From an uncultured Bacilli bacterium (GTDB lineage Bacteria; Bacillota_I; Bacilli_A; RF39; UBA660), in contig CANRAL010000001.1 of NCBI GenBank assembly GCA_947628585.1, forward strand, positions 3,154 to 67,153: a stretch of 64,000 nt of DNA, written 5' to 3'. The translations under genes and the position numbers were made by a program. A model generated the notes under the pieces. That model searched no databases, was not told the DNA's origin, and was given only the letters and a program-made list of their open reading frames with translations. Positions 10,626-44,064 of the stretch are shown piece by piece. How positions within the stretch are numbered: the stretch's first letter is position 1; each line of letters begins with the position of its first letter.

Positions 10626-10839
10626 TAGTGACAAATTAAATAAAATGTGTTAAAATAATTCTTAATCTTTGTTGAGGTGTGATACATAATGAAGAAATTT
10701 AGATTAAGTGCGAATATTTAATTTATTATATTATGATAAATCTTTATTTATATAATAAAAAAATTGAGATATTTTTAATAATATAATAAAATATAATAGG
10801 AAGCTTTTGAGTTTTAATGTTTTAAGGAGTGGTTTAATT

Positions 10840-13800
10840 ATGAACTCAAGATTAAAGAAGATAGTATTGTTTTTAATTACTAGTTTAATATTACCTTTTA
10901 GTGTTTTTGCTAAAGAAGATATAGAGTTAAGTGTTGATAAAAAAGATTTAAAAATTGGTGATGAGATAGTAGTAACTGCTAAAATGGCGGAAGATTTAGA
11001 AAGTTATGCTCTTATTGCCACTTTGAAGTATGATGAAAATGTTTTTCAAAGAATAGATGAATCTGATTTTGCGGTAGCTATTAATTCTAGTATTAATTAT
11101 AATAAAGCCAATAATAAATTTGGAATAATTAATCGAACTGGTCAAGCCCAAGATGGCATTCTTTTTCGAGTTAATTTAAAAGTAAAAGATAAAGCTAATG
11201 TTGGAGATACTAATATTGCTTTAACTAATATTTCTTCATCTGATGGTAGTGAAAAAAAAGAATATACAGCAAATACCCTTAAAGTATTTGTATCGCGGGA
11301 TATGGAAAAAAATGAAGAAATTTCTGGCAATAAGGAAAATAATATTAGTCCGGATACAGAAGAAATTATTAAAGTATTTACTAACAAACCAATTATAATT
11401 ATTTCTACAGTTTTAACTATAGGTTTATTAGGTTATATTTTATTTTATGGATTTAAAAAGAATAAGAATAAGAAAATATTAATTAGTTTAATTGTTGCTG
11501 ATGTTGCTTTGGGTGTTATAACCGGATCTATGTTTATTAATAATTATAATAAAAAAGATGTTAATGATGATGGTATTAAAAACTATGATGATGCGGAAGA
11601 AATTATCAAATATTTAATTGATATTAAAGGAATAGATGAAGAAGAAAAAATAGAAGAAAATGAAAAAGAGGATAATACAAATACCAATAGTACTTCAACT
11701 AATACTAATAGTAATAAAAAGCCTTCTTCTAATTCCAAACCAACTAAACCTAAAAATGATTATGATACAAATAATGATGGCAAAGTAGATGTTGATGATG
11801 TAGGGAATGTTGTAGAAGATGTAACTAAAAATACGAGTGTTAAATTACAAGAAGTAAATCCAAATAATGAATATTATATTGATAAAGGAACAATTGCACT
11901 TAATTTTAAGGCGGAAATTAATCCTCAAGATAGTAAAATAACTAAAGTTAAAATTGGTGATGAATTTTATGATGTTACTTTGGATAGTGATATTTATAGT
12001 GTAACTATAGATGTAAATGAAAGTGGAGAAAAAGATTTTGTAATTAGTGAAGTAATTTTAGATAATAATCAAAGTGTTAAAACTAATTTAAAAATTAGTA
12101 GGGAAATATTAAAAGAAATACCTTATGTTAATAACTTTAATTTGGAAGATGAAAAGAAAACATTAAGTTTTGATTTAGTGGATAATGATGATGCTTTTAA
12201 AGAAGGAACAGTTACTATTTATGATGGTACCGAAAGCATTAAAAGTGCTAAATTAAGTAAAAATAATATATTGAAAGATTTACCTATAGAAGAAGATAAG
12301 TCTTATGATGTTGAAATAATTGGTAGTTATGATTTAGATAGTAATAAAAATGAAGGTAAAAATTCTTATAATGAAGAAACAATGTTTAGTCATTCTTTTA
12401 CGATAGGTGGCGATTATAATTTTACTTTAACCGATGTAGTAATAACTGATGAGTTGCAACCGGGAGAAATTCCTGTTATATCGTTTAAGAGTACTAATAG
12501 TCGAAAAGCAAATATAAAATTAGCTAATTTTACTAATGACAAAAATGCTGCGAAATCTTATCAACTTATAGCCGTAAATGATAGTAATTATGAAGTTCCT
12601 ATAGTTGGGGCTGATATTACTCCTGGAGAACATACAATTACTTTAGACAGTGTTCAATTAGATAATTTGAAGTTTTTGGAAAATTCTAAGGATTATAATG
12701 TTAATGTTTTAAATTATACAGTTTTAAAAAGTGCTCCTAAAGCGGAAGATTTAACTCTTATAGATAAACGTGAGGAAAAAATTATTGAAGCGACATTTAA
12801 ATTAAATGATTCTAATGAAGCAGCAAATCATCTTATTATTTCTTTAACTGATTCATCTTATAAATTAGCTAGTAAAGTGGAATTTACTAAAGAAGAAATA
12901 GAGGCTTTAAGAGATAAAGAATTTAAAGTGTCTTTACCTTATGATAATAGCACTGATGGTTGTTATCGGGTAGTTGTTTATGCTGATTATGATTTATCGG
13001 ATAAATATCATTATACTCTTAAAAATATTGGAGAAAATTCTATTTTGAGTCCTAAAGATATTTATATTCAAGATATGTATTTAGTTAATGCTAAAAATGA
13101 AAAGATTGAAAGTCCTTATGTTTCTAAAGATAGTAATACTATTCAAGTAGCTTTTGAAATAGTAATTGGGGATGAAATAAAAAAATATAAATCTTATGGT
13201 GGCATATCTTATGTAACTATTAATGGTTTAAATTGTCCTATTAGTACTATAAAAACACCTGATAAAAATAATGGTGTGTATTTAATCAAAGCTACTGTTA
13301 AAGTTCCTAAAGAATCTGGTATTTTGGAATTAACAGCTAATCGGGTTCAACTTTCTAATAATTCATATTATCATATTTGGAGTGATTATTATGCTGTTGG
13401 AGAAAAATCTATTAAAATAGAAGTATTAAAAGATAAACCAAAAATAGAAAATTTAATAGTTACAGAAGAAGACTATGATAAAGGAAAAGTAACATTTGAT
13501 TTTGATATTGTATTAGATAATAATGCAACTTTAAATGATAATAGTTTTGATTTTGGTAGTCTTACTTTAGATGGTAAAGAAGGAAATCCAAGTGTTGTTA
13601 ATTCAACAGGGCATAATAAAGTAACTTTTGAAAATGTTTCAAAAGATAAAAAATTAGATTTAATATTTAAAGCTAAATTTGATTTAGATACTAATACTTT
13701 AGATACCGATAAAAATGAATTAGAGGAAGAAATATATAAAGTTAATTATGGTCTATATAATAAAAAATCTTATCAAGATGTAACTATTAATAAAGGATCT

Positions 13801-16800
13801 TCTAATAAAAAGTATTATGAAAAAAATGAAGATATAGAACTTACTTTTGATATAACTGGAAATTTTGAAAATTTAGGAATGAATCCTAAAAAAGTAATTA
13901 TTGATGATAAAGAATATGAATTAATAAAGAAAGATGATAGTTATAGTGTTAAAATTTTAGGATTTCATAGTTTTGGTAGAAAAGAAATAACTATTACTGA
14001 TGTAATTTTTGATTATGGTCAAAAAGTAACCTTAAAGGATAAATATTCATTAAATGTGGAAGTTTTAAAGGATGTTATTAAATTTAATAACTTAGAATAT
14101 GAAGTTTTAGAGAATTCTATTAAAGTTATTTTTAGAAAAGTTGATCCTGATAATTCTTTAGTAGGTAAAGCTAAAGTAATTATTAGTGATGAACAAAATA
14201 ATATTATTTATGATGGTAATTATCAAGATGAAATAAGTTTCAAACATGATGCTAATGTCTTAAGATATTTTGTTAAAGTAATTGGTTCATATGATCGAGA
14301 CATTAATGTAACGAAAAATAGTGAAAATTACTATGGTGATGTTACGTTACTTAATGAAATAATTTCGTTTGAAAGAAATAATATTGAATTAAAGAATATT
14401 ATTGATATTAATCTTTATAAACAAATAAATGATGGAACATATGATGAAATTATTAAAGTTGATGAAGTATCTTTAAAAGAAATAAATGATAATAAATCTG
14501 CTTATTTTGCTGAAGTAGTAATGGAAAATCTTCCAAGTATAAGAACTAGAATTAAGGAAGCAATTGAAAAAGATAAACATTTAATTTTAATACTTGATTA
14601 TAATTATGTAACTAAGGAAGGAAAAATAAAGACTAATAATGTTCAAATTGACTTTGGCGAAATAAAAGAGAATGGAATAGCTAAAAATGAATTTCATCCT
14701 GAAATAGCCATTCAAAAATTAATTGAAGAATTAAATGATAATAAAGATATAACCTTAATGCAAAATTATGATTTTTCGATAATTGATAATGAAGATTTAG
14801 TTTATGTAGAAAATTATAAAGGTACTTTAGAAGGAAATGACTATACATTTAAAAATTTAAGTAAACCATTATTTGATACTTTAACTGGTAAAGTAAAGAA
14901 TTTAAACATTGTTAATGTTGCTATGGAAAAAACTGGCCATGGAGCTTTAGCTAATAAAGCCGAAAACGCGGAAGTAACAAGTGTTTATATTGACAATGTG
15001 ACTAGAAATGCTGGCGATGATAGTGGTCAAAATGGGGGATTAATTGGTTCAACTGTAAATACTAAAGTAGAAGCATGTCGGGTAACAAATGTTACTATCA
15101 ATGCTGGTTACTATGCTCAACAAAATGGTTTATTAATTGGTACTACTAGTGGTAGTGTTGATAAATCAATAATAAAAAATTCTTATGCGGAAGGAAGACT
15201 TTTAGGTGGTTATAATTATACAAGTGGTTTTGTGGGTAATTGTAAATCAACGACTGTTATAAATAATTTTGTAAAAGTAACTGCCAGTGGTCAATCTGGA
15301 CCTGTTGCCGCTTTTGGGGATGCTTATGGGGACCAAAATAGTGTTTATGAAAACAATATAAGTATTGCCTCAGGTACAACAACTAATATGATTGGTAGTG
15401 CTAAAACTATTAATAATAATTATTTCTACATTGATAATGAAGCTACTAGTAAAGATGGTATTACGGTTATAGATAAAAATGATATTAATGATGAACTATT
15501 TATAACTAAAGCTAAATTTGATCCAAATATTTGGTATATTAATAATATTTCTTTTGATAATTTACCAATATTCCATAAAGAAAAGAAAACAGTATTAAAT
15601 GATACTTCTAATGAAAATTATCGGGAAGAAAATGAAACTTTATATCAAAATTTAATTAAATTAATGCCATTTTATGATAGTAATAAAATAATAACTATTG
15701 CTCAAAATGTTACAGATATAAATTTAAATACTAAGATTATTAATCATATTATTCCAATAGATAAAGAAGGAAAATTAGTAACTTATTTAACTAATTCTGA
15801 TATTCGAAAAATAGCTAAAATTAGAGTTGTATTCACGGATAAAACTAAAATAGATTATGATGTTATATATGATAAATCCTATGATATGGTAGCATCTTAT
15901 CGAATTATTAGTTTAGGTATTGATTATAATTATAATAATTATGTTATTGATGAAAATTCTCAAGTGGTAAATAATTTAACTAATTATTTACAAAAAATAA
16001 ATTATGGTACGGATTTGGATATTTTAACAACAAATAGTGATAGTCGGATATATAGAGATTTTTATAATGAAGTAACAAGTAAAGAATTAAAAGAATTTGT
16101 TTTAAAATATTTAGCTAATAGTGAATATACTAATACAACAAATGATAAGACAATTAATGATTATTTGGAAAGAGAAGTAAAGAAAAATCAAAAATTAGAA
16201 AAAGCCTTATATACTTATAATTATTTTAGAAGATTCTACGATGTAGAAGTTGGAAAAATGAAATTATATGATATTATGATGTTTAATATGGAAGGCTTTA
16301 ATAGTGATTTAACTACAAGTAAAATTGTTGATTTATTCTTTAGTGATAAAAGTGGAGCTAATTTTAATACTAATTTAACTAGTTCTAAATATTCTTCAGT
16401 TTTAGGATCATATACTAAAATAAATAATATAGTTGATTTTCTAGAATATGTAGTTACGGAATTTAGTAATGAAACTGATATGGCTAATTGGGTAAGAGAA
16501 CAATTTAAAGGAATTTTAGTGGAACTTCCAATTGAAGGACATCCTGAAATTTTATATACATTATGGGATCATTTCCGGAATCCTGACAAAAATTATCCTA
16601 ATGGAGTATATGGACATGATGCTCATGAATTTATATTACCAATTTTAACTTTACCAGAAAATTCAGCTTATATTATTTCGGCTCCAGTAGAATTTATTAT
16701 TGGTGCGCAAAGAACATATATTAGTGATCCTTTTGATCCCCAACAAGTTGCTGATTTTAAAGCTAAAATGGCAACATATACAACAAGATTACAATCTTAC

Positions 16801-18267
16801 TTTACAACTGCTTATGGTATTTTGGAAAATAAAGATTTATTTAATAATATGCATTTATTTATTCTTGATAAACGTAATACTAAAAATATAGATGGAACTG
16901 GAGTTTATAATAATCCATATACAACTACGGAACCATTCCATAAGAATTTTGATGAAATTTTAGGACTTTGGCCAGCAGCTGCCGGGAATAATGCCGCCGC
17001 ATGGGGTTACTACATTGAAATGCAAGTTGCCGGAGTATTAGATAGTAACTTAACTACTGATGGTTCATTAGATATTGGTCATGTTACATTTAAGACGCTT
17101 ACCCATGAATCTGCCCATAATTTAGATGATCGTTTATTCTTTAAGAATAATGGTCAAAGAGGGGGTGGAGAAGATTATGCCGATGCCTTCTTAATGCAAG
17201 CATTTGAAAAATTTGGTATTGTTATGAATTTATCAATTAATTTTGATTTAGAAAAGTTAAATGAAAATAATCAAGCTGTTGGTTCTAATTTAACGCCAGA
17301 ACGAATAAATACGGAAGCTAAAATATCTGATTTTTACAATAAAGCTTTCCAAACAATTTATACAATTGATTATTTAGAAGCACAAGCATTCTTACAGTTA
17401 CCAAAAGAAGCTCAAGAAAAGTTAGCTATTCAAATTTCTTATCCAAATGCGGAAAAAGAAGTAGAATTTAAAGATTCCGATGGAAAGGTATATATAGAAT
17501 ATGTTGATGAAAATGGGCAAAAACAACCTTTAGTAAGTAGAAAATATAAAGATGATCCTTATGCATTAAGCGCTGCTTATTCTTTAACTCAATATACAAA
17601 ATTAGATCAAGTTGAAGATTTTGATTTCAGTAAATTAAAAACCATTGATGATTTAATTGATAATAAGATAATGTTATATCCTGGTAAAGAAGGAGTATCG
17701 ACTTTAGGACCTGGACATTATGGTGGCGAAGGTTATAATGTTGTTCATTGGTACCAACCACATAATGATTACGGTTTCCCTGATTCTTATTCTTCTAAGT
17801 GGATTAGTTATGAAATGTTAGGTTATGCTGGATATACCAATGGTTTTGTAGAATATGCTAGTAATATTCATACTACCAAAAGAACATTCTACACTTCCTT
17901 ATCGGCAACTATAAATAAAAATGGTACTTTAGCTTTAAGTGAAATTAATTATAAAAGTGATGCTACAGCTTTAAAAATTATTACTAATAATCAATATGAA
18001 AATTTTGATGATTATAAGAAAGCTCGTTTTAGAGAAGTAGCTGCAAATTTAGATCACTTAAATAAAATAATAAATGCTAAAGAATATGTTCAAAAATTCT
18101 ATAATGCTTTAATGGAAGATGTTAATGATAAAAATTTAACTAAGAGTAGTGATGTTCGTTATCAAATTTATAGTACATTAAAAAATTATACTAATGATTT
18201 TAGAACTAATGAAATTATAATGGATAGTTGGCAACAAAATGTTAGTGATTTAAATGTTACTAAATAA
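10840..18267 (+). CDS. giant surface zinc metalloprotease, peptidase M26 (ZmpA/B/C, IgA1-protease-like) family
   Basis: ORF 10807..18267. ATG 10840 follows AAGGAG and gives signal peptide MNSRLKKIVLFLITSLILPFSVFA. GTLEGNDYTFKNLSKPLF...NLNIVNV matches the M26_N-like region. HESAH at 17104..17118 with Glu 22 residues after the first His (GGGEDYAD). Many beta-rich repeats lie between. Confidence 0.8.
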   Translation: MNSRLKKIVLFLITSLILPFSVFAKEDIELSVDKKDLKIGDEIVVTAKMAEDLESYALIATLKYDENVFQRIDESDFAVAINSSINYNKANNKFGIINRTGQAQDGILFRVNLKVKDKANVGDTNIALTNISSSDGSEKKEYTANTLKVFVSRDMEKNEEISGNKENNISPDTEEIIKVFTNKPIIIISTVLTIGLLGYILFYGFKKNKNKKILISLIVADVALGVITGSMFINNYNKKDVNDDGIKNYDDAEEIIKYLIDIKGIDEEEKIEENEKEDNTNTNSTSTNTNSNKKPSSNSKPTKPKNDYDTNNDGKVDVDDVGNVVEDVTKNTSVKLQEVNPNNEYYIDKGTIALNFKAEINPQDSKITKVKIGDEFYDVTLDSDIYSVTIDVNESGEKDFVISEVILDNNQSVKTNLKISREILKEIPYVNNFNLEDEKKTLSFDLVDNDDAFKEGTVTIYDGTESIKSAKLSKNNILKDLPIEEDKSYDVEIIGSYDLDSNKNEGKNSYNEETMFSHSFTIGGDYNFTLTDVVITDELQPGEIPVISFKSTNSRKANIKLANFTNDKNAAKSYQLIAVNDSNYEVPIVGADITPGEHTITLDSVQLDNLKFLENSKDYNVNVLNYTVLKSAPKAEDLTLIDKREEKIIEATFKLNDSNEAANHLIISLTDSSYKLASKVEFTKEEIEALRDKEFKVSLPYDNSTDGCYRVVVYADYDLSDKYHYTLKNIGENSILSPKDIYIQDMYLVNAKNEKIESPYVSKDSNTIQVAFEIVIGDEIKKYKSYGGISYVTINGLNCPISTIKTPDKNNGVYLIKATVKVPKESGILELTANRVQLSNNSYYHIWSDYYAVGEKSIKIEVLKDKPKIENLIVTEEDYDKGKVTFDFDIVLDNNATLNDNSFDFGSLTLDGKEGNPSVVNSTGHNKVTFENVSKDKKLDLIFKAKFDLDTNTLDTDKNELEEEIYKVNYGLYNKKSYQDVTINKGSSNKKYYEKNEDIELTFDITGNFENLGMNPKKVIIDDKEYELIKKDDSYSVKILGFHSFGRKEITITDVIFDYGQKVTLKDKYSLNVEVLKDVIKFNNLEYEVLENSIKVIFRKVDPDNSLVGKAKVIISDEQNNIIYDGNYQDEISFKHDANVLRYFVKVIGSYDRDINVTKNSENYYGDVTLLNEIISFERNNIELKNIIDINLYKQINDGTYDEIIKVDEVSLKEINDNKSAYFAEVVMENLPSIRTRIKEAIEKDKHLILILDYNYVTKEGKIKTNNVQIDFGEIKENGIAKNEFHPEIAIQKLIEELNDNKDITLMQNYDFSIIDNEDLVYVENYKGTLEGNDYTFKNLSKPLFDTLTGKVKNLNIVNVAMEKTGHGALANKAENAEVTSVYIDNVTRNAGDDSGQNGGLIGSTVNTKVEACRVTNVTINAGYYAQQNGLLIGTTSGSVDKSIIKNSYAEGRLLGGYNYTSGFVGNCKSTTVINNFVKVTASGQSGPVAAFGDAYGDQNSVYENNISIASGTTTNMIGSAKTINNNYFYIDNEATSKDGITVIDKNDINDELFITKAKFDPNIWYINNISFDNLPIFHKEKKTVLNDTSNENYREENETLYQNLIKLMPFYDSNKIITIAQNVTDINLNTKIINHIIPIDKEGKLVTYLTNSDIRKIAKIRVVFTDKTKIDYDVIYDKSYDMVASYRIISLGIDYNYNNYVIDENSQVVNNLTNYLQKINYGTDLDILTTNSDSRIYRDFYNEVTSKELKEFVLKYLANSEYTNTTNDKTINDYLEREVKKNQKLEKALYTYNYFRRFYDVEVGKMKLYDIMMFNMEGFNSDLTTSKIVDLFFSDKSGANFNTNLTSSKYSSVLGSYTKINNIVDFLEYVVTEFSNETDMANWVREQFKGILVELPIEGHPEILYTLWDHFRNPDKNYPNGVYGHDAHEFILPILTLPENSAYIISAPVEFIIGAQRTYISDPFDPQQVADFKAKMATYTTRLQSYFTTAYGILENKDLFNNMHLFILDKRNTKNIDGTGVYNNPYTTTEPFHKNFDEILGLWPAAAGNNAAAWGYYIEMQVAGVLDSNLTTDGSLDIGHVTFKTLTHESAHNLDDRLFFKNNGQRGGGEDYADAFLMQAFEKFGIVMNLSINFDLEKLNENNQAVGSNLTPERINTEAKISDFYNKAFQTIYTIDYLEAQAFLQLPKEAQEKLAIQISYPNAEKEVEFKDSDGKVYIEYVDENGQKQPLVSRKYKDDPYALSAAYSLTQYTKLDQVEDFDFSKLKTIDDLIDNKIMLYPGKEGVSTLGPGHYGGEGYNVVHWYQPHNDYGFPDSYSSKWISYEMLGYAGYTNGFVEYASNIHTTKRTFYTSLSATINKNGTLALSEINYKSDATALKIITNNQYENFDDYKKARFREVAANLDHLNKIINAKEYVQKFYNALMEDVNDKNLTKSSDVRYQIYSTLKNYTNDFRTNEIIMDSWQQNVSDLNVTK

Positions 18268-19954: not shown

Positions 19955-20028
19955 AGGGGATTAGTTAAATGGTATAATAGGAGTCTCCAAAACTTTAGTT
20001 GGGAGTTCGATTCTCTCATCCCCTGCCA
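19955..20028 (+). tRNA. tRNA-Trp (anticodon CCA), CCA encoded
   Basis: Acceptor AGGGGAT/ATCCCCT, anticodon stem GGAGT/ACTTT with loop CTCCAAA, T arm GGGAG-TTCGATT-CTCTC. Confidence 0.9.
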
Positions 20029-20057: not shown

Positions 20058-20174
20058 ACATATTAGAAACGATTTTTTTAAATCAATATTAATTTATTAA
20101 TTTATTAAGTAAAAAATAACTATTGATTTTTATTTATGTTGTGGAATATAATAAACGAAAGGAGGTTTAGGATA

Positions 20175-20795
20175 ATGAATCAAAAATTATATATGATTGT
20201 AACTTATGATTATAAATATAGACCAGAATTTTTTTATAATGTAGATGATTTAAAAAATTGGTTTTTAACTCATATTGGTAGGGAAATACCTGAAATATAC
20301 GTTTTAGAATATATAGGTGAATTTAATGGTGTAAGTGATGTAATTAAGTTAAGCGTTTTAAGCCAAGAATATAGTTATTATATTACGGCAGTTAATAAAA
20401 AATTACTTATTGAATACAAAGAAGAAAAAAATTTATGGCAAAATATTAATCATATTTCTCAATCTAGTCCTTTTTATTACCCTAATCAAATTTATAATGC
20501 TTTGCAAGGCATGGGCATTAATTTAAATAATGTTTATGAAAATGAAAGTGACAGAATTAGCGAGTTTGATGTTGTAAATGAAAGTGGATTTTGTGCTATG
20601 AAAAATGATATTATTAAAGAATTAAATAAATTAACAGGCCCTAATGGATTTATATCAGCTAAAACTTCAAAAGAAAAGAAACATCTCAAAGCACTAAATG
20701 ATAGACTAAAATATATGGAAAATGAACAACAAAAATTAAAATTAGTAAGAACCAAACCTTTAATACATTTTCCTGATTATACCCGCTATTTTTAA
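20175..20795 (+). CDS. hypothetical protein
   Basis: ORF 20136..20795. ATG 20175 is preceded by AGGAGG. No recognisable motifs. Confidence 0.6.
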   Translation: MNQKLYMIVTYDYKYRPEFFYNVDDLKNWFLTHIGREIPEIYVLEYIGEFNGVSDVIKLSVLSQEYSYYITAVNKKLLIEYKEEKNLWQNINHISQSSPFYYPNQIYNALQGMGINLNNVYENESDRISEFDVVNESGFCAMKNDIIKELNKLTGPNGFISAKTSKEKKHLKALNDRLKYMENEQQKLKLVRTKPLIHFPDYTRYF

Positions 20796-21165
20796 TTAGA
20801 AACTCTAAAACATTGCTGTAAAGATTATATTATTAAGCAATATGAATAAAGATGCAGATAACATTAGACCTATATTTGTAGAACAAGAATCTCTTACATA
20901 AAAGTAAGGGATTTTTTCAAATTGGGTAAATTTTATTGTAAGTAGCAATAGCTTTAGTATAATATGTATGTAATGTTATTTGAAATTTAAGAGTTATTTA
21001 CTATATTTTAATAGTAAAGGTTGGATATAAGTTTAACTGATAGTTTGCATACCAAACAAGTAAAAAAACTGTCACAAAAACTGCCAATTCTGCCATTATA
21101 AAAGAAGATATATCAAGAAATAACAAAAAGATAAAAACTTGATATGCCTTGTTTTATGGTGGTTG

Positions 21166-21237
21166 GGGGCGATTGAGGGTTGTTATTTATGAACTCCAAA
21201 ACCTTAGTTGAAGGTTCGATTATTCTATGCCCTGTCA
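21166..21237 (+). pseudogene. decayed tRNA-Trp copy / att-like repeat of the tRNA-Trp 3' half
   Basis: 21194..21237 matches tRNA-Trp 19985..20028 at 34 of 44 positions (my count), including the CTCCAAA anticodon loop and TTCGATT T loop. Stems no longer pair and the 3' end is TCA, not CCA. Confidence 0.7.
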
Positions 21238-21255
21238 AAACGTTTATAATATATT

Positions 21256-21331: not shown

Positions 21332-22012
21332 ATGGAGAATGTTTTAAGAAAATTTATAGAAAGAAAGCGTAATTTATTAGTTCCTATTAATGGAGATAAT
21401 GATTATAAATATAAAATTTATAATGAAATAAGTCTTCAACATGAATTGGGTAATTTTTTAGAGGATGAAGGCTATGAAGTTTTTTATGAAAAAAATATGT
21501 ATAAATGCCAACAAGAAGATGCAAAAAAGAAAGATGAGGAAGATGATTGGGTAAAAAAAGAAGCAGATATCGTTGCTATAGATAGGAAGACTTCTAGAAA
21601 ATATGTTATAGAGTTAAAATTTGCTCAATCAAAAAACGGACAAATCCCAGAAGAAATGTATCAATTTGTAAAAGATATTTGTTTTATGGAACAAGTATTA
21701 GAAAAGAAAAAAGAATATACTGCTACTTTTAATTTAATCATAGTAAATGACAGGAAATATTTTTCACTCGATTATCATAAAAGGGATAAATATTATGGCA
21801 TTTTTAGAAATGATAAGGAAGAGGTTAAAATTCCTAAAAGTTTAGAAAATGGTGTTTATTCTAGACCGACTGGCAAAGAAAGTGGTAGAGAATTTTGTCT
21901 TAATAAATCGTATGATGAAAAGTGGGAGCGTATTTTTAATAACTGTAAGGAATATGAAAATTATAGATATTTATTAATTAGTCATTATTCGAAATCAAAA
22001 ACACAAAAATAG
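21332..22012 (+). CDS. hypothetical protein, possible PD-(D/E)xK nuclease fold
   Basis: EADIVAID...YVIELKF gives a D...E-x-K arrangement after an N-terminal acidic helix (QHELGNFLEDEG). Own terminator at 21998..22022. Confidence 0.4.
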   Translation: MENVLRKFIERKRNLLVPINGDNDYKYKIYNEISLQHELGNFLEDEGYEVFYEKNMYKCQQEDAKKKDEEDDWVKKEADIVAIDRKTSRKYVIELKFAQSKNGQIPEEMYQFVKDICFMEQVLEKKKEYTATFNLIIVNDRKYFSLDYHKRDKYYGIFRNDKEEVKIPKSLENGVYSRPTGKESGREFCLNKSYDEKWERIFNNCKEYENYRYLLISHYSKSKTQK

Positions 22013-22088: not shown

Positions 22089-22703
22089 ATGGATCTTGAA
22101 AAAATAGGAAAATATATTGCTAAATGTCGTAAGAAAATTAATTTAACTCAAGAGCAACTTGCAGATTTAATGAATGTAAGTGTTAAATCTATAAGTAAAT
22201 GGGAATGCGGAATGTGTTTGCCTGATATTAGTAAAATGCAGGATTTATGTTATTTTTTAAAAACTAATTTATTTAATCTACTAAACGGGGAAGACTCTGA
22301 ATTCAAATTTTTTATAAAAAAAGTTGGGGGAATAGCTATTCAAGATAAAAATCATTATAAAAGATATCAAGTCAAATATTCTAAGTTAGATTCTCAAAAA
22401 GTAAAAAAGCTTAAAGATATTAAAGAAAATCAAAAAAAACATATTATTCAAGTTAAAATTATGGGATTCGATATTGAAGAAAAAGATGGTTTTACTCATG
22501 GCACACTATATGGGACGGATGGTTCAATGGAGGTCATATTAACTTTAAATGACAATGGAGAATATCAAAGTAGAAAGGTTATTGATAATATAAAAATTGG
22601 TGAAGAATATTTATGCAAAGGCTTTATTTTTGATATTTTTCCTAAATGTTCTATTCCAAAAAATATGATAGTGGAAGAAATAGAAAAAGTAATAGTGAAA
22701 TAA
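22089..22703 (+). CDS. XRE-family HTH regulator fused to a PolC-type OB-fold-like C-terminal domain
   Basis: N-terminus LTQEQLADLMNVSVKSISKWECG is a classic XRE HTH. The C-terminus IQVKIMGFDIEEKDGFTHGTLYGTDGSMEVILTL...IKIGEEYLCKGFIFD follows the PolC OB-domain pattern. Confidence 0.6.
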   Translation: MDLEKIGKYIAKCRKKINLTQEQLADLMNVSVKSISKWECGMCLPDISKMQDLCYFLKTNLFNLLNGEDSEFKFFIKKVGGIAIQDKNHYKRYQVKYSKLDSQKVKKLKDIKENQKKHIIQVKIMGFDIEEKDGFTHGTLYGTDGSMEVILTLNDNGEYQSRKVIDNIKIGEEYLCKGFIFDIFPKCSIPKNMIVEEIEKVIVK

Positions 22704-22733
22704 ACAATAAATCAAAAAACTAGGAGAAATATA

Positions 22734-23765
22734 ATGTATGAATATTTAAATACTATAGCAAAGGAATATCTTACAAAAGAATTGCAAAGAAATTTTTTTA
22801 AAAAATTTGATTTAAAGAATCTATTTAGAAGATGTGAAAAAGAAATAGATATTCTTTATGAGAGAAATTTACTTTTTGTTGTTGAATACTTATATAAATT
22901 TAAAAAAGAAAATAAAAATGTTAAGTATCATTTTAGAGGTACTATAAATAATCTATTACTTTTATATGTATTAGATATAAGTTATGTTAATCCTTTAGAA
23001 TATAACTTACCTTATGAGTTATTTAATGATAAAACTATTAATGTTGATATAATTAATGAACCTAGTATTCTTTTTGTTAATTATTTAAATCGCCAAGCAG
23101 ATAATTTTAAAATAGTCTATGGTTTTTTTGAAAAAGAAGATTTAAAAGAAGTTAATGAATTGTTAGAAAACCATTATTTATTATTGCCATGTAGTTGCCT
23201 AGATAATAATATGTTGTTAAGATTTAATGATTTAGATATATTAGAAACTATCGATGATTATAGAAGCTATAAAAATAAATATATGACCATAAGAATAGAT
23301 GAAAAAAATAAAATAAGATGTGATAATAGATGTCTTGATAATGTATTTACTAATGATTTTGAAAAAGACATAGCTAAAATTTTAAAACCTAAAACTATAG
23401 ATGATTATATAAAAATTAAAAGTATTGCTCATAGTACGGATGTATGGAATAATAATCAAAATAAGTTAGTTAAAGAAAAAAAGATAAATTTAAATAATTT
23501 AATTGCAACACGTGAAGATATATTGGAGTACCTATTAAATCATAAAATTGAAAGAAAAATAGCCTTAGAAATCGTAGCATTTATTAGTTTAGGGAAAAAG
23601 AAAAAAGAGCCTAATAAATGGGATGAATATGTTAAGGTAATGAAAGAACATAATTGTGATGATATGTTTATAGATATATTTTCAAAAATATTATTCATTT
23701 TTGGTAGAGGTCAAGCAATAAGTGAGTGTTTATATGTTTTAGATAAAGATAATTATTGTATATAA
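22734..23765 (+). CDS. mini-PolC-like protein 1 (C-family polymerase palm/fingers remnant, catalytic motif degenerate)
   Basis: Colinear with PolC motifs: FRGTINNLLLLYVLDISYVNPL, KPKTIDDYIKIKSIAHSTDVWNNNQ, TREDILEYLL, KILFIFGRGQAISECLYVL. INVDIIN (23037..23051) replaces PDIDLNF. Confidence 0.6.
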   Translation: MYEYLNTIAKEYLTKELQRNFFKKFDLKNLFRRCEKEIDILYERNLLFVVEYLYKFKKENKNVKYHFRGTINNLLLLYVLDISYVNPLEYNLPYELFNDKTINVDIINEPSILFVNYLNRQADNFKIVYGFFEKEDLKEVNELLENHYLLLPCSCLDNNMLLRFNDLDILETIDDYRSYKNKYMTIRIDEKNKIRCDNRCLDNVFTNDFEKDIAKILKPKTIDDYIKIKSIAHSTDVWNNNQNKLVKEKKINLNNLIATREDILEYLLNHKIERKIALEIVAFISLGKKKKEPNKWDEYVKVMKEHNCDDMFIDIFSKILFIFGRGQAISECLYVLDKDNYCI

Positions 23766-23788
23766 AAATTATCATAGGAGGATAAAAA

Positions 23789-24427
23789 ATGAAATATGAA
23801 AACTGCATATGTGATTTAAAGAATAAGGGACTAATAATTTTAGCGGGTTGTCCTAGTACGGGAAAAACAACATTATCTTTAAGTATAGCAAATTTTATAT
23901 CTAAACAAACTGATGGTAAAATATTGTTTTTTTCTTTAGAGGAAAGTAAAGAAAAATTAGAAAATAGAGTAATTAATGATAACATTAAAATTTTAGATAA
24001 GCCAAATATAGATATAAACTATATAAAAAATAAGTGTAAAGAAAATGAAAGAAATTTAAAATTAGTTATAATAGATTATTTTCAATTAATTGATACATCT
24101 GTAAATAATATCAAGAGAACTATAGATGAACTTAATTTAATAAGTGAACAATATAATATTCCTATAATTATAACTTTACAATTATCTAAAACCTCATTAA
24201 ATAAAAAAACTACATTAAAAGATTTTAATAATAAATATCTAATAGATAAAGCCACAAAAGTAATTGCTTTATCTAAAGATAATGAAGATATTAGACAAAT
24301 AAGTATAATAAATTTAAATTTTATTAAAGGAGAAGATAATATTAATTTTATGGTTATTATGAGTAATTATCAATTATGTGAATTTAAGATAGTTGAGTTA
24401 AATTTTAAAAATGAAAAAGATAAATAA
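23789..24427 (+). CDS. DnaB C-terminal (RecA-like) domain-only ATPase
   Basis: Walker A GCPSTGKTT (23846..23872), FFSLEES, Walker B LVIIDYFQLI and IPIIITLQLSK mirror the DnaB_C motifs. No N-terminal DnaB domain. Confidence 0.7.
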   Translation: MKYENCICDLKNKGLIILAGCPSTGKTTLSLSIANFISKQTDGKILFFSLEESKEKLENRVINDNIKILDKPNIDINYIKNKCKENERNLKLVIIDYFQLIDTSVNNIKRTIDELNLISEQYNIPIIITLQLSKTSLNKKTTLKDFNNKYLIDKATKVIALSKDNEDIRQISIINLNFIKGEDNINFMVIMSNYQLCEFKIVELNFKNEKDK

Positions 24428-25076
24428 TTTATTTAAAGCAACAATTACTTTTGAAAATGATAGTTATATGAGTATAGTTTTATATTTAGTTTATAATGGT
24501 AAAGAAAAGTTAAAAAACTTAGTTCCTCAAATAAAATTTGATACTTGGGAAGATAGAGATTTTTTAACTGTTGACATAAAAAATATTAAAATTTTAGAGA
24601 AATTGGAAAAATTAACTGAAATGGATAAATTATATATAAATGATGTTTTGGAATATGTAAAAACCCATCAAAAACTATTATTAGATTATTGGAATGCTGA
24701 TATACCAGAATTTGAAGCAAAACAAATATTTTTTGAAGAAACAAATGATTATTTTGGTTTTACTAATTTAAGTAAAAGAAAATCTGGTTTACCTATGAAT
24801 TTAGTTTTTTATTGTTCATATCTACTTGATAGAGATAATATATTATTTTTTCAAAATGATTATGGAAAACTTAATTATAATAATATGATTATGATGAGTG
24901 TTGATAAATATAATCCCCAACTATTAGTAGATAGGAAAATAAATATAAAAGAAGAAGATATGATATTATTAAAAAATTTTATCAAAAAACATTATAAAAC
25001 AATAACATATTATAATAACGATAAAATATATGATGCTGAAATATTTGATTTAATTGATGAAAGTTTAAATAATTAA
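24411..25076 (+). CDS. hypothetical protein
   Basis: Overlaps the upstream gene by 17 nt. Contains an LLLDYWN module that recurs in the 26620 gene. Confidence 0.55.
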   Translation: MKKINNLFKATITFENDSYMSIVLYLVYNGKEKLKNLVPQIKFDTWEDRDFLTVDIKNIKILEKLEKLTEMDKLYINDVLEYVKTHQKLLLDYWNADIPEFEAKQIFFEETNDYFGFTNLSKRKSGLPMNLVFYCSYLLDRDNILFFQNDYGKLNYNNMIMMSVDKYNPQLLVDRKINIKEEDMILLKNFIKKHYKTITYYNNDKIYDAEIFDLIDESLNN

Positions 25077-25102
25077 TAAAATATTAATTGGAGTTGATAC
25101 AA

Positions 25103-25579
25103 ATGTTTTTTAGAAAAATACAACAAAAAAGATATAATAAATATTTATTAAATGAGTTGCAAAGAAAATTAGATGATTCTATGGACAACTTGATCATTCA
25201 TTTACTTTTATGTTTAATACTACAAAACTCTACTAATAATTTAAGCCATTGGGAAGGCGAAGTATATTCTAGTTTATATAGGGTTCCTAAGCTTAAAGGT
25301 AAAAATAAATATCCAACTGAGAAAGTGCTTTATAGTATGACTTTAGATAGATTCGGAGATGTGTTATCTATTTGGGTTATAACCTATATAGATCAAATAA
25401 ATAATAAAGAAAATGTTAATATAACTAATTATGATGGTTCTTTATTAACTAATTATATAATTGACTACTATAAATGGTTAATTTCCATTTTAGCCAAAGA
25501 ATATTTTGTTACATATGATGAAGTAAGTAAGAAAATAAAAGAATTAATTGATGACTATAATAAAAATATAAAAAGTTAG
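25103..25579 (+). CDS. hypothetical protein
   Basis: ORF 25088..25579. ATG 25103 follows GGAG. No confident family. Confidence 0.55.
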   Translation: MFFRKIQQKRYNKYLLNELQRKLDDSMDNLIIHLLLCLILQNSTNNLSHWEGEVYSSLYRVPKLKGKNKYPTEKVLYSMTLDRFGDVLSIWVITYIDQINNKENVNITNYDGSLLTNYIIDYYKWLISILAKEYFVTYDEVSKKIKELIDDYNKNIKS

Positions 25580-25588
25580 GTGTTAATA

Positions 25589-26608
25589 ATGTATAATGAA
25601 TTAAATTTTGATTCTAAAAATTATTTATTAAAAGAATTAAATAAGATTTTTTATAAAAAATATAATGATAAAAATTTATTAAAAAGATGCTATTCTGAAA
25701 TAAATTTATTATATGAAAATGATGTTTTATTTATTATAGAATATCTATATAAATTTAAAAAAGAAAAGAAAGATGTTTCATATTATTTTAAGGGTATGAT
25801 TAACAACTTATTTGTTTTATATGTTTTAGGGTTAAATGTAGTTAATCCAATTAAATATAATTTATCTTATGAACTTTATTTTGATGAAACATTAGATGTA
25901 TATTTAAATAACTTTGATACTTATGATTTTATAAATTACTTAATTAAAAATAATAATGGGTTTCATATAGTAAAAGGAAAAACTAATCCCGGAATAAACG
26001 AAGATAATAATTATTTATTAATCCCTTATGGTTGTAAAGATGATGAAATACTATTTAAATTTAACCATGAATCTATTATGGAAATTGTAGAGGATTATAA
26101 TAAATATAAATTTACTTATTTAACTATTAAATTATCTAATAAATATTTTTTAAGCGGTTATGATAAGGTAGATTTAATAAATTGTATAAATACCCAAGAT
26201 GAAATAAAAATATTTGATACCATTAAACCTAAATCACTAGAAGATTATATTAAAGTTAAAAATATCGCTCATAGTGTAAAATGTTGGAAAAATAATCAAG
26301 ATATTTTATTTAATAGTAATAAATTAAATATTAATAATTTAATAACAAGTCGAGATGATATCTATGATTATTTAATTAAACACAATATAGATAAAGTTGT
26401 AGCAATAGATATAATCAAAATTATATGTAGGCATAATGCTAAAACATCTTATATTTGGAAAGAATACTTAAAAATAATGAAAGATAATAGTTGTGAAGAA
26501 GTATTTATTAAAGTAATCACTAACTTAATATCTATCCATGGTCGTGGTGAAGCAATAAGTGAGTGTTTATTTGTGTTAGATAAAAACAATTATTTAGGTA
26601 TCAATTGA
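25589..26608 (+). CDS. mini-PolC-like protein 2 (paralog of 22734..23765, more degenerate)
   Basis: ORF 25580..26608. ATG 25589 follows AGGTG and gives an MY.. start like copy 1. FKGMINNLFVLYVLGLNVVNPI, KPKSLEDYIKVKNIAHSVKCWKNNQ, SRDDIYDYLI, ISIHGRGEAISECLFVL. The catalytic-motif position reads TLDVYLN. Confidence 0.6.
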   Translation: MYNELNFDSKNYLLKELNKIFYKKYNDKNLLKRCYSEINLLYENDVLFIIEYLYKFKKEKKDVSYYFKGMINNLFVLYVLGLNVVNPIKYNLSYELYFDETLDVYLNNFDTYDFINYLIKNNNGFHIVKGKTNPGINEDNNYLLIPYGCKDDEILFKFNHESIMEIVEDYNKYKFTYLTIKLSNKYFLSGYDKVDLINCINTQDEIKIFDTIKPKSLEDYIKVKNIAHSVKCWKNNQDILFNSNKLNINNLITSRDDIYDYLIKHNIDKVVAIDIIKIICRHNAKTSYIWKEYLKIMKDNSCEEVFIKVITNLISIHGRGEAISECLFVLDKNNYLGIN

Positions 26609-26619
26609 GGAAAATTAAA

Positions 26620-27069
26620 ATGGTTTTTATAAAAGGACATCAAAAAAATTTATTAATTAATTTTAACTATGATTGGGTATTAAAGGAATTAAATAAAGAT
26701 AATGATATAAATGGGATAACAAGAATTGGATTTACTGATAAAGGTTATGAAGTAGTTATAGTAACTGATGATGATTTATTAAGTGATGTGCCACACTTTC
26801 ATTATCGTAAAAAAAAGAAAGGTAAGCCTAATGAATTTCATACTTGTATTAAAATAACTGATGTAGGATACTATCATCATATCGGTAATGAAGATAAGTT
26901 AAATAAAGAGCAAATAAATGATTTAATAAATTTTTTAAATTCTAAACCCCTAAAAACAAAATATTTTAAAAATAATTGGGAGTTATTATTATTTATTTGG
27001 AATAGTCAAAATAAGGATATACAAATTAATGATAACTTAAAAATGCCCGATTATCATAATTTGAAATAG
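26620..27069 (+). CDS. hypothetical protein with PHFH motif (DUF4160-like?)
   Basis: ORF 26605..27069. ATG 26620 follows GAGGAAA. VPHFHYRKKK and LLLFIWN motifs. Confidence 0.5.
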   Translation: MVFIKGHQKNLLINFNYDWVLKELNKDNDINGITRIGFTDKGYEVVIVTDDDLLSDVPHFHYRKKKKGKPNEFHTCIKITDVGYYHHIGNEDKLNKEQINDLINFLNSKPLKTKYFKNNWELLLFIWNSQNKDIQINDNLKMPDYHNLK

Positions 27070-38376: not shown

Positions 38377-39048
38377 ATGGAAATATTAAGAGTAGAAAAT
38401 CTAACGAAAATATATGGTAAAGATACTACTAAAGTAGTAGCTTTAGATAATGTATCTTTTACGGTAGAAAAAGGAGAATTCGTTGCTATTGTTGGTGCTA
38501 GTGGTTCGGGAAAATCAACACTATTACATTTAATCGGAGGAGTAGATAGACCAACAAGTGGTAAAGTATTTATTGATGGTAATGATATTTTTAGTTTCGA
38601 TGATGATAAATTAGCTATATTTCGGCGAAGACAAGTAGGTTTAATATATCAATTTTATAATTTAATACCTATTTTAAATGTGGAAGAAAACATAACTTTA
38701 CCTTTAGCCCTTGATAATAGAGTAGTAAAATCAGAAAAAATAAATGAAATGTTAAAACTCTTAGGTTTAGAAAATAGAAAAAATCATTTACCTAATGAAT
38801 TATCGGGTGGACAACAACAAAAAACTAGTATTGGTCGAGCTTTAATAACGAATCCTACTTTAATTCTCGCGGATGAACCAACGGGAAACCTTGATAGTAA
38901 ATCTAGTGATGAAATTGTTGCCTTACTTAAAAAATCTAATAAAGAATTAAAACAAACTATTATTATGATTACGCATAATTTAGAAATTGCTAAAGTAGCT
39001 GACCGAATTATTAAAATCGAAGATGGTAAAATCGTAGGTGAAAACTAA
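38377..39048 (+). CDS. ABC transporter ATP-binding protein (MacB/BceA-like)
   Basis: GASGSGKST, FRRRQVGLIYQFYNL, LSGGQQQKTSIGRAL and ILADEPTGNLD. Confidence 0.9.
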   Translation: MEILRVENLTKIYGKDTTKVVALDNVSFTVEKGEFVAIVGASGSGKSTLLHLIGGVDRPTSGKVFIDGNDIFSFDDDKLAIFRRRQVGLIYQFYNLIPILNVEENITLPLALDNRVVKSEKINEMLKLLGLENRKNHLPNELSGGQQQKTSIGRALITNPTLILADEPTGNLDSKSSDEIVALLKKSNKELKQTIIMITHNLEIAKVADRIIKIEDGKIVGEN

Positions 39049-41648: not shown

Positions 41649-41678
41649 AAATTATGATATAATGCTTTGGGAGGTTAT

Positions 41679-42122
41679 ATGGAAAATTTATTTAGTGATA
41701 TACCTAAGGCAGATTTAAGAATATATGGAGTTGATAATTTTTCTTCAGGAATATATTTTTTAAATGAAGTTGATTTATATCATGCAATAGCCAATTACGA
41801 AATTCCTTTTTGGAGTAATATCATTGTTTTAGAATATTACCAAGAATACGCCGGCAGAAAAGATGTTATCAAAAAGATCGATAAAGAAGGTAAGATGGGA
41901 ATTTATGCTATAGAATCAACTAATGAATTAAGAATCTTAGATATTCCCGCGAGTTTAGAAGTAAAATCTTACGTTTGGAAAATTATTCCTGGTAATTTAA
42001 AAAAGGAATATGGTGTTTTAAGAAATCTTGGTATTACCTTTACTCATGATTTATATCAAGAGGAAGAAAAATTACAAGAACTTCAAAGAAAAAAATTATA
42101 TAAAGAAACTTTTAAAAATTAA
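41679..42122 (+). CDS. hypothetical protein
   Basis: ORF 41667..42122. ATG 41679 follows GGGAGG. Soluble, no motifs recognised. Confidence 0.55.
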   Translation: MENLFSDIPKADLRIYGVDNFSSGIYFLNEVDLYHAIANYEIPFWSNIIVLEYYQEYAGRKDVIKKIDKEGKMGIYAIESTNELRILDIPASLEVKSYVWKIIPGNLKKEYGVLRNLGITFTHDLYQEEEKLQELQRKKLYKETFKN

Positions 42123-42146
42123 AGTTTCTTTTTTAAAGAGGCGCAA

Positions 42147-42800
42147 ATGAAAATTTTATTAATAGAAGATAATTTAACAATAGCTAAAGGTTTACTTTAT
42201 TCTTTTAAACAAAATAATTATGAACTTATTCATACATCTAATTTAAAGAAAGCTTATACTTATTTAACTAATACAATAGTTAATTTAATTATTTTAGATA
42301 TAACTTTACCTGATGGAAATGGTTTTAATTTTTATAAGGATTTTATTAAAAATAAAAATATTCCAACTATCTTTTTAACCGCGAAAGATGAAGAAGATGA
42401 CATTGTTAGAGGTTTAGAAATAGGTGCTGAAGATTACATAACTAAACCATTTAGTACTAAAGAACTTTTAGCTCGAGTTAATAAAATAATTCTAAGGGAA
42501 AAGAAAAATAATTTAATTACCGTTCAAGATATAACCTTTGATATGGCTAAAATGGTAGTTTTAAAAAATAAAAAAGAAATCGATTTAACTCCTTTAGAAA
42601 AGAAAATATTAATGTTATTATTTTTAAATTTAAATAAAGTAGTAACTCGAAATGCTATTTTAGATAATATTTGGGATATTACGGGTAATGATGTTGATAA
42701 TCACACAGTTACTGTTTATATTAAAAGAATAAGAGAAAAATTAAAAAGTGATATTATTAAAACTATTAAAGGAATAGGCTATGAAATCAATGAAGAATAA
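42147..42800 (+). CDS. OmpR-family response regulator
   Basis: Receiver domain (ILDITLPDGNG, phospho-acceptor Asp) plus a winged-helix C-terminus (VYIKRIREKL...IKGIGYE). Confidence 0.9.
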   Translation: MKILLIEDNLTIAKGLLYSFKQNNYELIHTSNLKKAYTYLTNTIVNLIILDITLPDGNGFNFYKDFIKNKNIPTIFLTAKDEEDDIVRGLEIGAEDYITKPFSTKELLARVNKIILREKKNNLITVQDITFDMAKMVVLKNKKEIDLTPLEKKILMLLFLNLNKVVTRNAILDNIWDITGNDVDNHTVTVYIKRIREKLKSDIIKTIKGIGYEINEE

Positions 42801-43998: not shown

Positions 43999-44064
43999 TT
44001 TAATTTATTTGACTAATATTTAAAAATATTATAAAATAATTTTTGCTAAAAAAGGAGATAACTT

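Follow-up and report, generated by a model that had tools for sequence, protein, structure and literature searches.

A modular cassette family of degenerate PolC cores and replisome-derived partners beside tRNA and tmRNA loci in uncultured gut Bacilli

C-family DNA polymerases have so far been handled as a closed set comprising DnaE1-3 and PolC. Here, we describe two genes encoding strongly shortened PolC derivatives, called mini-PolC, which form part of a seven-gene operon (g1 to g7, 22089-27069) of an uncultured Bacilli bacterium (assembly GCA_947628585.1, contig CANRAL010000001.1, positions 3,154 to 67,153). This whole stretch of 64,000 nucleotides is referred to as the window, and coordinates are those of the window unless another locus (an L number) is named. 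The operon represents one arrangement within an unnamed family of modular cassettes, located in variable regions next to tRNA and tmRNA genes in the genomes of uncultured gut Bacilli. Mini-PolC genes are functional and under purifying selection, and alignments indicate that their products are almost certainly not polymerases. Tentatively, and with somewhat less than even confidence, these cassettes are read as conflict modules that interfere with replisomes.

All seven genes of the operon are encoded on the same strand:

g1, 22089..22703, + strand: XRE-type helix-turn-helix (HTH) domain (residues ~7-69) followed by a putative PolC-type oligonucleotide-binding (OB)-like domain (~115-185)
g2, 22734..23765, + strand: mini-PolC copy A, 343 aa; palm (without thumb) and fingers; motifs TINVDII and RIDEK
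g3, 23789..24427, + strand: DnaB C-terminal RecA-like ATPase domain only, 212 aa
g4, 24411..25076, + strand: acidic protein of 221 aa, fold unassigned; the commonest small partner of mini-PolC
g5, 25103..25579, + strand: 158 aa (163 aa from TTG at 25088), no family
g6, 25589..26608, + strand: mini-PolC copy B, 339 aa; motifs TLDVYLN and IKLSNK
g7, 26620..27069, + strand: DUF4160-like protein of 149 aa

An earlier note on this DNA had described seven co-directional genes that are tightly packed or overlapping, and both the open reading frames (ORFs) and their spacing were confirmed. From g1 to g7, successive genes are separated by 30, 23, -17, 26, 9, and 11 nt, the 26-nt gap between the g3/g4 block and g5 shrinking to 11 nt if TTG at 25088 is taken as the g5 start. 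A G-rich, Shine-Dalgarno-like stretch lies ahead of six of the seven starts, the exception being g4, which starts inside g3. No terminator-like site was found within the operon, the sole one in 19.9-27.3 kb being located after the upstream tRNA gene, and promoter-like sites occur at chance level (79 observed vs 76 expected). G+C content (GC) is 18.5-20.6% in g2-g4 and g6 and 22-25% in g1, g5, and g7, in a window of ~25%.

Origin, fold and active site of mini-PolC

The proteins encoded by g2 and g6 are real PolC derivatives that consist of the palm and fingers only. Residues 5-98 of g2 match the Pfam family DNA_pol3_alpha (PF07733) with 24.2 bits, for a gathering cut-off of 23.9, and the match to DNA_pol3_finger (21.6 bits) falls just under its cut-off of 22. 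In the NCBIfam PolC model NF001688, residues 208-329 of g2 align with PolC 1161-1277 (E=9.5e-23), and g6 matches the same model with E=1.2e-11. A profile of 33 family members, searched against all PDB sequences, retrieves PolC (9qpc, E=7e-23; 3f2b, E=2e-18). The same relationship is evident from structure. The AlphaFold2 model of mini-PolC has a predicted local distance difference test score (pLDDT) of 95.3 and a predicted template-modelling score (pTM) of 0.91, and its top Foldseek match is PolC 3f2b_A (E=7.8e-13; TM 0.76, normalised to the query) in an alignment that carries ~120 gap columns. Below this match there are only other PolC and DnaE structures, with nothing else under E=0.4.

Mini-PolC begins at the first palm helices (profile position 3) and stops ~15 aa past the fingers. 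Consequently, the PHP, exonuclease, thumb, clamp-binding, and helix-hairpin-helix (HhH)/C-terminal domains are absent, and no Pfam match to PHP or another extra domain was detected in g2 or g6. Relative to PolC (3f2b, 9qpc), with which it shares a palm and fingers that are homologous in sequence and fold, mini-PolC has a quarter of the length and also lacks the N-domain, while the exonuclease that is missing is of the DnaQ type. Two family members, P0110 and P0116, retain the PolC-specific CxxC...CxxC zinc-finger insert in the palm, after the 'VNPL' motif. The earlier note had recognised two paralogs of ~340 aa colinear with the PolC palm and fingers and had listed the PHP, exonuclease, clamp-binding, and HhH regions as absent; both statements hold, with the thumb missing too. 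The comparison with PolC and DnaE by profile and by structure, which had been named beforehand as the check, found a significant relation to C-family polymerases.

The two copies are 45-46% identical and represent two subtypes, both of which recur in other genomes. Orthologs of the B type (g6), for example, are present in L015, L016, L033, L034, and L039.

The state of the active site was read from an alignment in which 111 family members were set against three sequences of the PolC type with intact PDIDLNF and KFDILGH motifs. Asp is found in 0/111 members at the first catalytic column, which is mainly Thr, and in 10/111 at the second, which is mainly Asn, Cys, Ser, or Lys; two positions beyond the second column, an acidic residue is present in 87/111. 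The strand that bears the third Asp is unalignable, and the corresponding 'RIDEK' position varies between D, S, G, K, M, and N. Two acidic residues are retained in g2 (D105 and D189), and g6 has Tyr and Ser at those positions. Many non-catalytic residues are invariant across the family. The Gly of the RG(S) nucleotide-binding motif is kept in 108/111 members, and in the fingers HG is kept in 98/111 and 82/111 and RED in 102-110/111, while the 'KAH' of the PolC fingers is replaced by a conserved 'RGQ'. The proteins had previously been said to look like pseudo-polymerases on the basis of a catalytic motif degenerated to INVDIIN and TLDVYLN, a description that extends to the family, as no triad is conserved across the 111 members. 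Judged from these alignments, mini-PolC is almost certainly a preserved scaffold without the metal site, and not a polymerase.

The family is sizeable, and no source gives any of its members a name. A word-indexed search yielded 117 clusters at 90% identity, with identities down to 33% and nearly all lengths between 338 and 370 aa. The ratio of nonsynonymous to synonymous substitution rates (dN/dS) is 0.19-0.30 in ten pairwise comparisons, and mini-PolC genes are thus functional and under purifying selection. These data bear directly on the idea that the genes are decaying pseudogene remnants of a second, horizontally acquired replisome set, with no present function. The degenerate catalytic motifs, the truncated domains, the very low GC, and a broken copy of mini-PolC in L038 would all be expected of such remnants. 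However, near-uniform length among clusters so divergent, the low dN/dS, and a model pLDDT of 95 largely refute decay, and intact frames, Shine-Dalgarno-like stretches at six of seven starts, operon-like spacing, and the invariant non-catalytic residues also speak against it; this explanation is very improbable.

Among 185,579 species genomes, 28 convincing matches were found, all in gut metagenome-assembled genomes (MAGs; from rabbit, mouse, and human) of uncultured 'Bacilli', 'Tenericutes', or 'Clostridia', bar one MAG labelled Muribaculaceae. An exhaustive profile search returned 1,588 proteins, with 56 representatives (at 50% identity) under E=1e-30. By size, these comprise the ~340-aa family, ~400-aa palm+fingers proteins, ~700-aa PHP+palm+fingers proteins, and true PolCs; the long forms retain PDIDLNF and KFDILGH, and the short forms mostly do not. 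In two Lachnospiraceae MAGs, ORFs of 148 aa (L041 20-466) and 224 aa (L043 9824-10498) consist of nothing but the fingers of PolC (NF001688 E=1.9e-35 and 1.3e-46, respectively), and these may be fragments or another stand-alone form.

Viral sources contain next to nothing comparable. The 2.9 million viral contigs of IMG/VR gave a single distant match, a 426-aa mini-PolC beside two large serine recombinases (L047), and in a phage collection the only matches were to full polymerases, in the finger region. No viral protein of like size was found in BFVD, where all fold matches are phage polymerases of 650-1474 aa. Neither PADLOC, PHROGs, Pfam, nor NCBIfam holds a dedicated model for the mini-PolC family.

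Cassettes beside tRNA and tmRNA genes

In 12 related loci, mini-PolC clusters are located 0.1-4 kb downstream of a tRNA or tmRNA gene. The anchor is tRNA-Trp in the window, L002, and L017, the latter two sharing with the window both the tRNA-Trp gene and a Hydrolase_2 neighbour ahead of the cluster. It is tmRNA in L012, L015, L019, L020, L033, L034, and L039, and tRNA-Arg/Pro in L018 and L027. Among the islands are minimal ones such as the following, in gene order:

L015: tmRNA / mini-PolC, mini-PolC, g4 / tRNA-Gln
L020: tmRNA / g4, mini-PolC, DnaB-C / tRNA-Gln
L034: tmRNA / DUF1810, mini-PolC

The genes that accompany mini-PolC are drawn from a limited repertoire. Over ~30 non-redundant loci, the partners are OB proteins (11 loci), DnaB-C-like proteins (9), relatives of g4/g5/g7 (9), DUF1810 (7), and proteins consisting of the DnaA AAA+ domain only (domain III; 2, L009/L031), while a 110-aa single-stranded DNA-binding protein (SSB) core is the partner in L058. 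Mini-PolC occurs by itself in ~8/30 loci. DUF1810 (E=1.9e-51), a function-unassigned family with almost no literature, is a recurrent immediate neighbour in L016, L017, L023, L025, L034, L039, and L040.

Beyond the cassettes themselves, defence-related genes are common neighbours. Examples include HATPase/Z1/DUF4420/AIPR genes with an LlaJI-type enzyme; zeta toxin, DUF3644, and a cytosine methylase with McrBC, Fic, and SMODS; MTaX1 with a methylase; and Fic with Macro. The most widespread member of the family has GmrSD on one side and a type I restriction-modification system on the other. In 146 distinct neighbour proteins, PADLOC matches included those to GmrSD-related, restriction/methylase, GajB, DRT reverse transcriptase-helicase, AriA, and AbiL models. 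The survey of co-occurrence and neighbourhoods proposed in the earlier note thus recovered shuffling replisome-core partners at tRNA/tmRNA sites, next to restriction, McrBC, GmrSD, and CBASS (cyclic-oligonucleotide-based anti-phage signalling) genes.

Two wider relatives have a different setting. In L052 (4788-10905), a 731-aa PHP+palm+fingers PolC-like protein, with the zinc finger, PDIDINF, and KFDILGH intact, is followed by a 70%-identical g4 homolog, a protein of the metallo-beta-lactamase fold, and a 497-aa protein with a nuclease-like D..ELK motif. From its intact motifs, L052 is possibly an active 'midi-PolC' module in the same bacterial lineage. The Butyrivibrio proteoclasticus plasmid pCY186 (L045/L046, record 116-138 kb) carries two unannotated mini-PolC-like genes of 480 and 332 aa, the smaller product having LSIEINV where PolC has PDIDLNF. 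They are part of a co-directional cluster of initiators, dnaX, an FtsH-like AAA+M41 protein without membrane segments, a DnaA/Hda-like protein, a full polC, dnaB, and a loader-like ATPase.

Such loci raise the possibility that the cassettes are replication or hijacking accessories of integrative mobile elements. Once such an element is excised, or in an ancestral plasmid or phage-plasmid, mini-PolC would then act as a non-catalytic structural or adaptor subunit for a catalytic C-family polymerase, either host PolC/DnaE or an element-encoded 'midi-PolC', with the OB and DnaB-C proteins serving replication of the element. ImuB, Hda, the clamp-loader delta' subunit, and the replication modules of SCCmec offer analogies for such a role. 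The replication cluster of pCY186, the intact protein directly ahead of the g4 homolog in L052, the two large serine recombinases that adjoin mini-PolC in L047, and the small resolvases or large serine recombinases near ~8/30 loci are all consistent with it, as is the derivation of every recognisable partner from replication proteins. However, the island in the window has no recombinase, initiator, primase, complete helicase, or iteron/AT-rich origin array, and minimal islands contain mini-PolC alone or with one small partner. In L009, mini-PolC is found among the cargo, and the integrase, relaxase, and AAA_25 genes of the element itself are ~5 kb away. The domains that ordinarily connect such proteins with the replisome appear to be the very ones deleted (clamp/tau binding, the DnaB N-domain and, to judge from the 110-aa length, the SSB tail), and the family is near-absent from IMG/VR, with only finger-region matches in the phage collection. 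On balance, a mobile-element role, the chief rival to the conflict reading, is unlikely, if far from negligible.

Partner proteins and the island in the window

The first gene of the operon encodes an XRE-type HTH protein (HTH_3, PF01381, E=3.4e-8, residues 10-54; phrog_8, E=8e-13). A profile of its C-terminal ~100 aa matches c5, a group of free-standing ~130-aa proteins, with E=2.8e-5 in a set of 863 proteins, and the reverse search matches too. The c5 genes lie directly upstream of mini-PolC in 10 other loci. One c5 member matches positions 224-323 of the PolC model NF001688, which is the OB domain, with E=0.003, and when a joint g1/c5 profile was compared with 177,635 PDB sequences, the top match was the OB domain of Geobacillus PolC (3f2b residues 3-92, E=0.02). 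In a set of 5.8 billion proteins the C-terminus of g1 has a single relative, and the AlphaFold model of g1, built on a 2-sequence alignment, has a pLDDT of 41.6. Of the XRE HTH and PolC-type OB fusion proposed earlier, the HTH part is therefore secure, and the OB part has matches that are specific and statistically weak, so that a PolC-type OB domain is weakly suggested. The protein is presumed to be the repressor or sensor of the operon. No LexA-type peptidase domain was found on it with Pfam.

Ahead of and across the g1 start codon, in an AT-rich region, the heptamer GTTAATA occurs three times (22051-57, 22063-69, and 22083-89), and this triplet may be an operator for the HTH-OB protein. OB partners also occur in a form of ~325 aa, upstream of mini-PolC in L022/L023/L024/L030 (for example, L024 8989-9963), whose extra C-terminal ~190 aa resemble short beta-strand repeats and have no family match.

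The product of g3 matches DnaB_C with E=2.9e-23 from profile position 11, and models of full DnaB match it only from about position 185-250 onward. Like the replicative helicase, it has the RecA-like C-domain with Walker A (GCPSTGKTT), the catalytic Glu (FFSLEE), and Walker B (VIIDYFQL). Unlike the helicase, it lacks the N-terminal helical domain and linker, an internal segment of ~35 aa, and the arginine finger needed for inter-subunit hydrolysis, the region DLRESG..EQDAD of DnaB reading DFNNKY..DK-AT in g3. A DnaB C-terminal RecA-like domain on its own, with Walker A and B intact, is what had been claimed, and to this the loss of the arginine finger can be added. Loss of the arginine finger extends to the DnaB-C partner proteins of other loci, and a related partner family of 145 aa, c12, has no Walker A.

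The remaining genes, g4, g5, and g7, had been put down as three small unknowns. This still applies to g4 and g5, and g7 can now be described as DUF4160-like. None of the three window copies matches a curated family or gives anything meaningful against PDB sequences. Homologs of g4 form 39 clusters at 55-100% identity, and those of g5 occupy the same operon position in L013, L014, L037, and L029. In L027 (12826-13869), and also in L028, a 347-aa protein combines a g4-like N-terminal half with a g7-like C-terminal half. The fusion protein matches g7 with a BLAST E of 6e-15, and its g7-like part matches DUF4160 with E=1.3e-6. Fusion of the two suggests that g4 and g7 act jointly. In PADLOC-DB 2.0, g2, g5, g6, and g7 have no match, and the matches of the others are weak: g1 to a generic HTH, g3 to a P-loop model (mad8, 6e-5), and g4 to DUF3644 (E=0.046). 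PHROGs holds no family for g2 or g5-g7.

Upstream of the operon, four features delimit its island:

tRNA-Trp (CCA), 19955..20028, + strand: called by ARAGORN; insertion hot spot, the variable region beginning on its 3' side
g0a, 20136..20795, + strand: orphan gene of 219 aa between tRNA-Trp and the degenerate tRNA copy, no family match
Degenerate full-length tRNA-Trp copy, 21164..21238, + strand: left edge of the operon-carrying segment, not called as a tRNA by ARAGORN
g0b, 21332..22012, + strand: 226 aa, directly upstream of the operon, no family match

The degenerate tRNA-Trp copy has a mean column identity of 74% to the intact gene over its full length, and its 3' 47 nt are 77% identical. 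Because it parts g0a from the operon segment, the arrangement carries the signature of serial insertion, that is, of two insertions. Homologs of g0a were found only in contig L001, which is identical to the window, and g0a is probably cargo of a separate insertion, outside the operon. In g0b, a D...ELK motif recalls PD-(D/E)xK nucleases, a resemblance that is suggestive at most. Proteins of similar size occupy the g0b position in L014, L027, L029, and L039 and have no significant similarity to it. A single PD-(D/E)xK family uniting g0b with same-position proteins of ~210 aa (c51, c123) and those of L047 (251 aa) and L052 (497 aa) was considered and rejected, as phmmer and hhalign show no significant similarity.

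Within 19.9-27.3 kb, the ORF list and family scans reveal no integrase, recombinase, initiator, primase, or complete helicase, and no iteron or AT-rich origin-like array is present, the only repeats being the g2/g6 paralogy and the tRNA copy. The label of a 'satellite-type island' given earlier does not fit a window that contains no integrase, initiator, origin-like repeats, or packaging genes.

Elsewhere in the window, the genes are those of an ordinary chromosome, among them genes for ABC transporters, a two-component system, and a glycosidase. A match to the DnaB_C profile at 38377-39048 proved to be an ordinary ABC-transporter ATPase. Upstream of the island, at 10807-18267, lies a gene for a 2486-aa surface protein with a C-terminal Peptidase_M26 domain. 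A second low-GC patch (19.2%, 42000-44000) spans a 151-aa ORF without a Pfam match (41667-42122) and response-regulator and histidine-kinase genes (42147-43998), and has no link to the operon.

Precedents, function and significance

Neither reduced Pol III alpha modules nor dead polymerase paralogs are new as ideas, and several known systems share features with the mini-PolC cassettes. SCCmec-type islands encode a truncated polymerase (CCPol) with a small partner (MP), the Cch helicase, an OB-fold ssDNA binder, and large serine recombinases. The SCC replication proteins are an A-family polymerase and an MCM-like helicase, and they are catalytically active. Both systems consist of island-borne, cut-down replication proteins tied to serine recombinases, but no SCC protein is homologous to the operon proteins, and the island in the window lacks a recombinase. 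Chromosomal regulators provide a second parallel. Hda consists of the DnaA AAA+ domain only, and SsbB-type proteins are short SSBs; both have known partners, such as the clamp, DnaA, and the competence machinery. These architectures are shared by the mini-PolC partners of L009/L031 (DnaA domain III) and L058 (the SSB core), which, in contrast, are encoded in variable island cassettes beside mini-PolC.

Among published systems, the closest is the minimal Pol III alpha of group 2.2 jumbo phages, a split, two-protein enzyme for which activity has been predicted (Iyer et al. 2021, PMC7824862). Compared by description, that enzyme resembles g2 and g6 in being reduced to approximately a nucleotidyltransferase core and a template-binding part. 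However, its two chains are encoded far apart, alongside a family B polymerase, whereas mini-PolC is a single PolC-type chain that has lost its catalytic residues and is encoded in chromosomal islands of Bacilli MAGs, with other replisome fragments alongside. Literature searches turned up no account of inactivated PolC cores in a single chain, nor of genes combined in this way, and the databases are equally silent, in agreement with the earlier note that no system of this composition has been described. In two systematic surveys of C-family polymerases, DnaE1-3 and PolC were the sole groups recognised, and fragments were discarded if their active site was not intact. Consequently, a sizeable family of selected, well-folded, dead PolC cores has been overlooked.

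A further precedent suggests a role that would benefit the host. In the ImuA'/ImuB system, a dead polymerase homolog and a dead RecA-fold protein serve as scaffolds beside a C-family polymerase (PMC3919608, PMC12926913). By analogy with imuA'-imuB-dnaE2, the operon could be a damage-tolerance or fork-repair cassette, in which an inactive polymerase and a RecA-fold ATPase scaffold redirect the host polymerase under the control of an HTH repressor. In composition the operon is formally parallel, as it pairs a catalytically dead homolog of a polymerase with a RecA-fold ATPase and adds a regulator whose HTH is N-terminal. ImuB, however, belongs to the Y family and has clamp- and RecA-binding motifs, and its cassette is SOS-regulated and includes the catalytic DnaE2. 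Mini-PolC, in contrast, is a C-family protein in defence-rich islands, and most of its loci have no linked catalytic polymerase. Moreover, the cassettes are patchy, island-borne, and multi-copy with shuffling partners, g1 has no LexA-type peptidase domain, and the neighbours are restriction and toxin genes rather than SOS genes. A repair function is accordingly improbable.

The partners of mini-PolC, here and elsewhere, are single-domain replisome cores stripped of connecting domains, to which small DUF1810 and DUF4160-like proteins are added. The parts that were kept (the OB domain of SSB, the RecA ring domain of DnaB, the AAA+ filament domain of DnaA, and the polymerase cleft) appear to be core or oligomerisation domains, and the parts that were lost would include every domain linking these proteins to the rest of the replisome. 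Retention of the cores and loss of the links would suit such proteins to compete, co-assemble, or imitate, and not to recruit real machines. Mini-PolC itself differs from PolC in being island-borne, multi-copy, patchy, and without the conserved Asp triad or the 'KAH' motif, and its OB partner resembles the PolC OB domain. Three further features are in keeping with a module that is kept repressed and interferes with replication in conflicts with phages or other elements: restriction genes abound in the surroundings, an HTH gene comes first in the operon, and no other effector gene is present. The near-absence of the family from viral contigs and the lack of an integrase, initiator, or origin in the window also count towards a conflict function.

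The reading we lean towards, though we would put it at a little below an even chance, is therefore a repressor-controlled replisome-interference module that makes no DNA and works by mimicry or competition at replication forks. Under this model, the HTH-OB protein (g1) would hold the operon silent until a trigger is encountered. The connector-less cores would then enter the assemblies of the genuine helicase, SSB, initiator, and polymerase, or of phage proteins that target these, or else compete with them. Mini-PolC could sit on primer-template ends or on the binding partners of the polymerase core, and the DnaB-C ATPase (g3) could act as a nucleotide-dependent switch rather than a translocating helicase. 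As a result, replication of the invading element would be arrested or sensed, an outcome of the abortive-infection or anti-mobile-element type.

Several observations pull the other way. The two acidic residues that g2 keeps near the former active site leave room for residual or altered catalysis, and a median pI of 5.8 across the family lends no support to strong DNA binding. Distant relatives sit in apparently genuine replication clusters (pCY186 and L052), and the serine recombinases near ~8/30 loci, although there are none in the window, fit a core function in mobile elements. The association with defence genes is a qualitative one and no calculated enrichment, and tRNA/tmRNA hot spots gather all kinds of mobile cargo. 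Finally, no member of the operon matches a PADLOC anti-phage system model. Of the two functions guessed at earlier, a replication or hijacking module of an island and a replisome mimic or decoy, both still lead; the data lean to the side of conflict and mimicry without settling the matter.

A more far-reaching proposal is that mini-PolC cassettes constitute a new class of immune or conflict system based on replisome mimicry, in which dead cores poison the forks of invaders or act as decoys that sense anti-replisome phage proteins. This is less likely than not, though a realistic prospect. If true, these would provide the first example of C-family polymerase paralogs that lack catalysis and yet have their own function, and their constant company of single-domain replisome cores in restriction-rich hot spots would point to a mode of replication interference or sensing outside current defence catalogues. 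If mini-PolC proteins are instead accessory replisome subunits of mobile elements, they would be to the C family what ImuB or delta' are elsewhere. Whichever holds, the family can be used to probe experimentally how the PolC core, which is an antibiotic target, contacts proteins and DNA, and it gives access to the biology of uncultured gut Bacilli.

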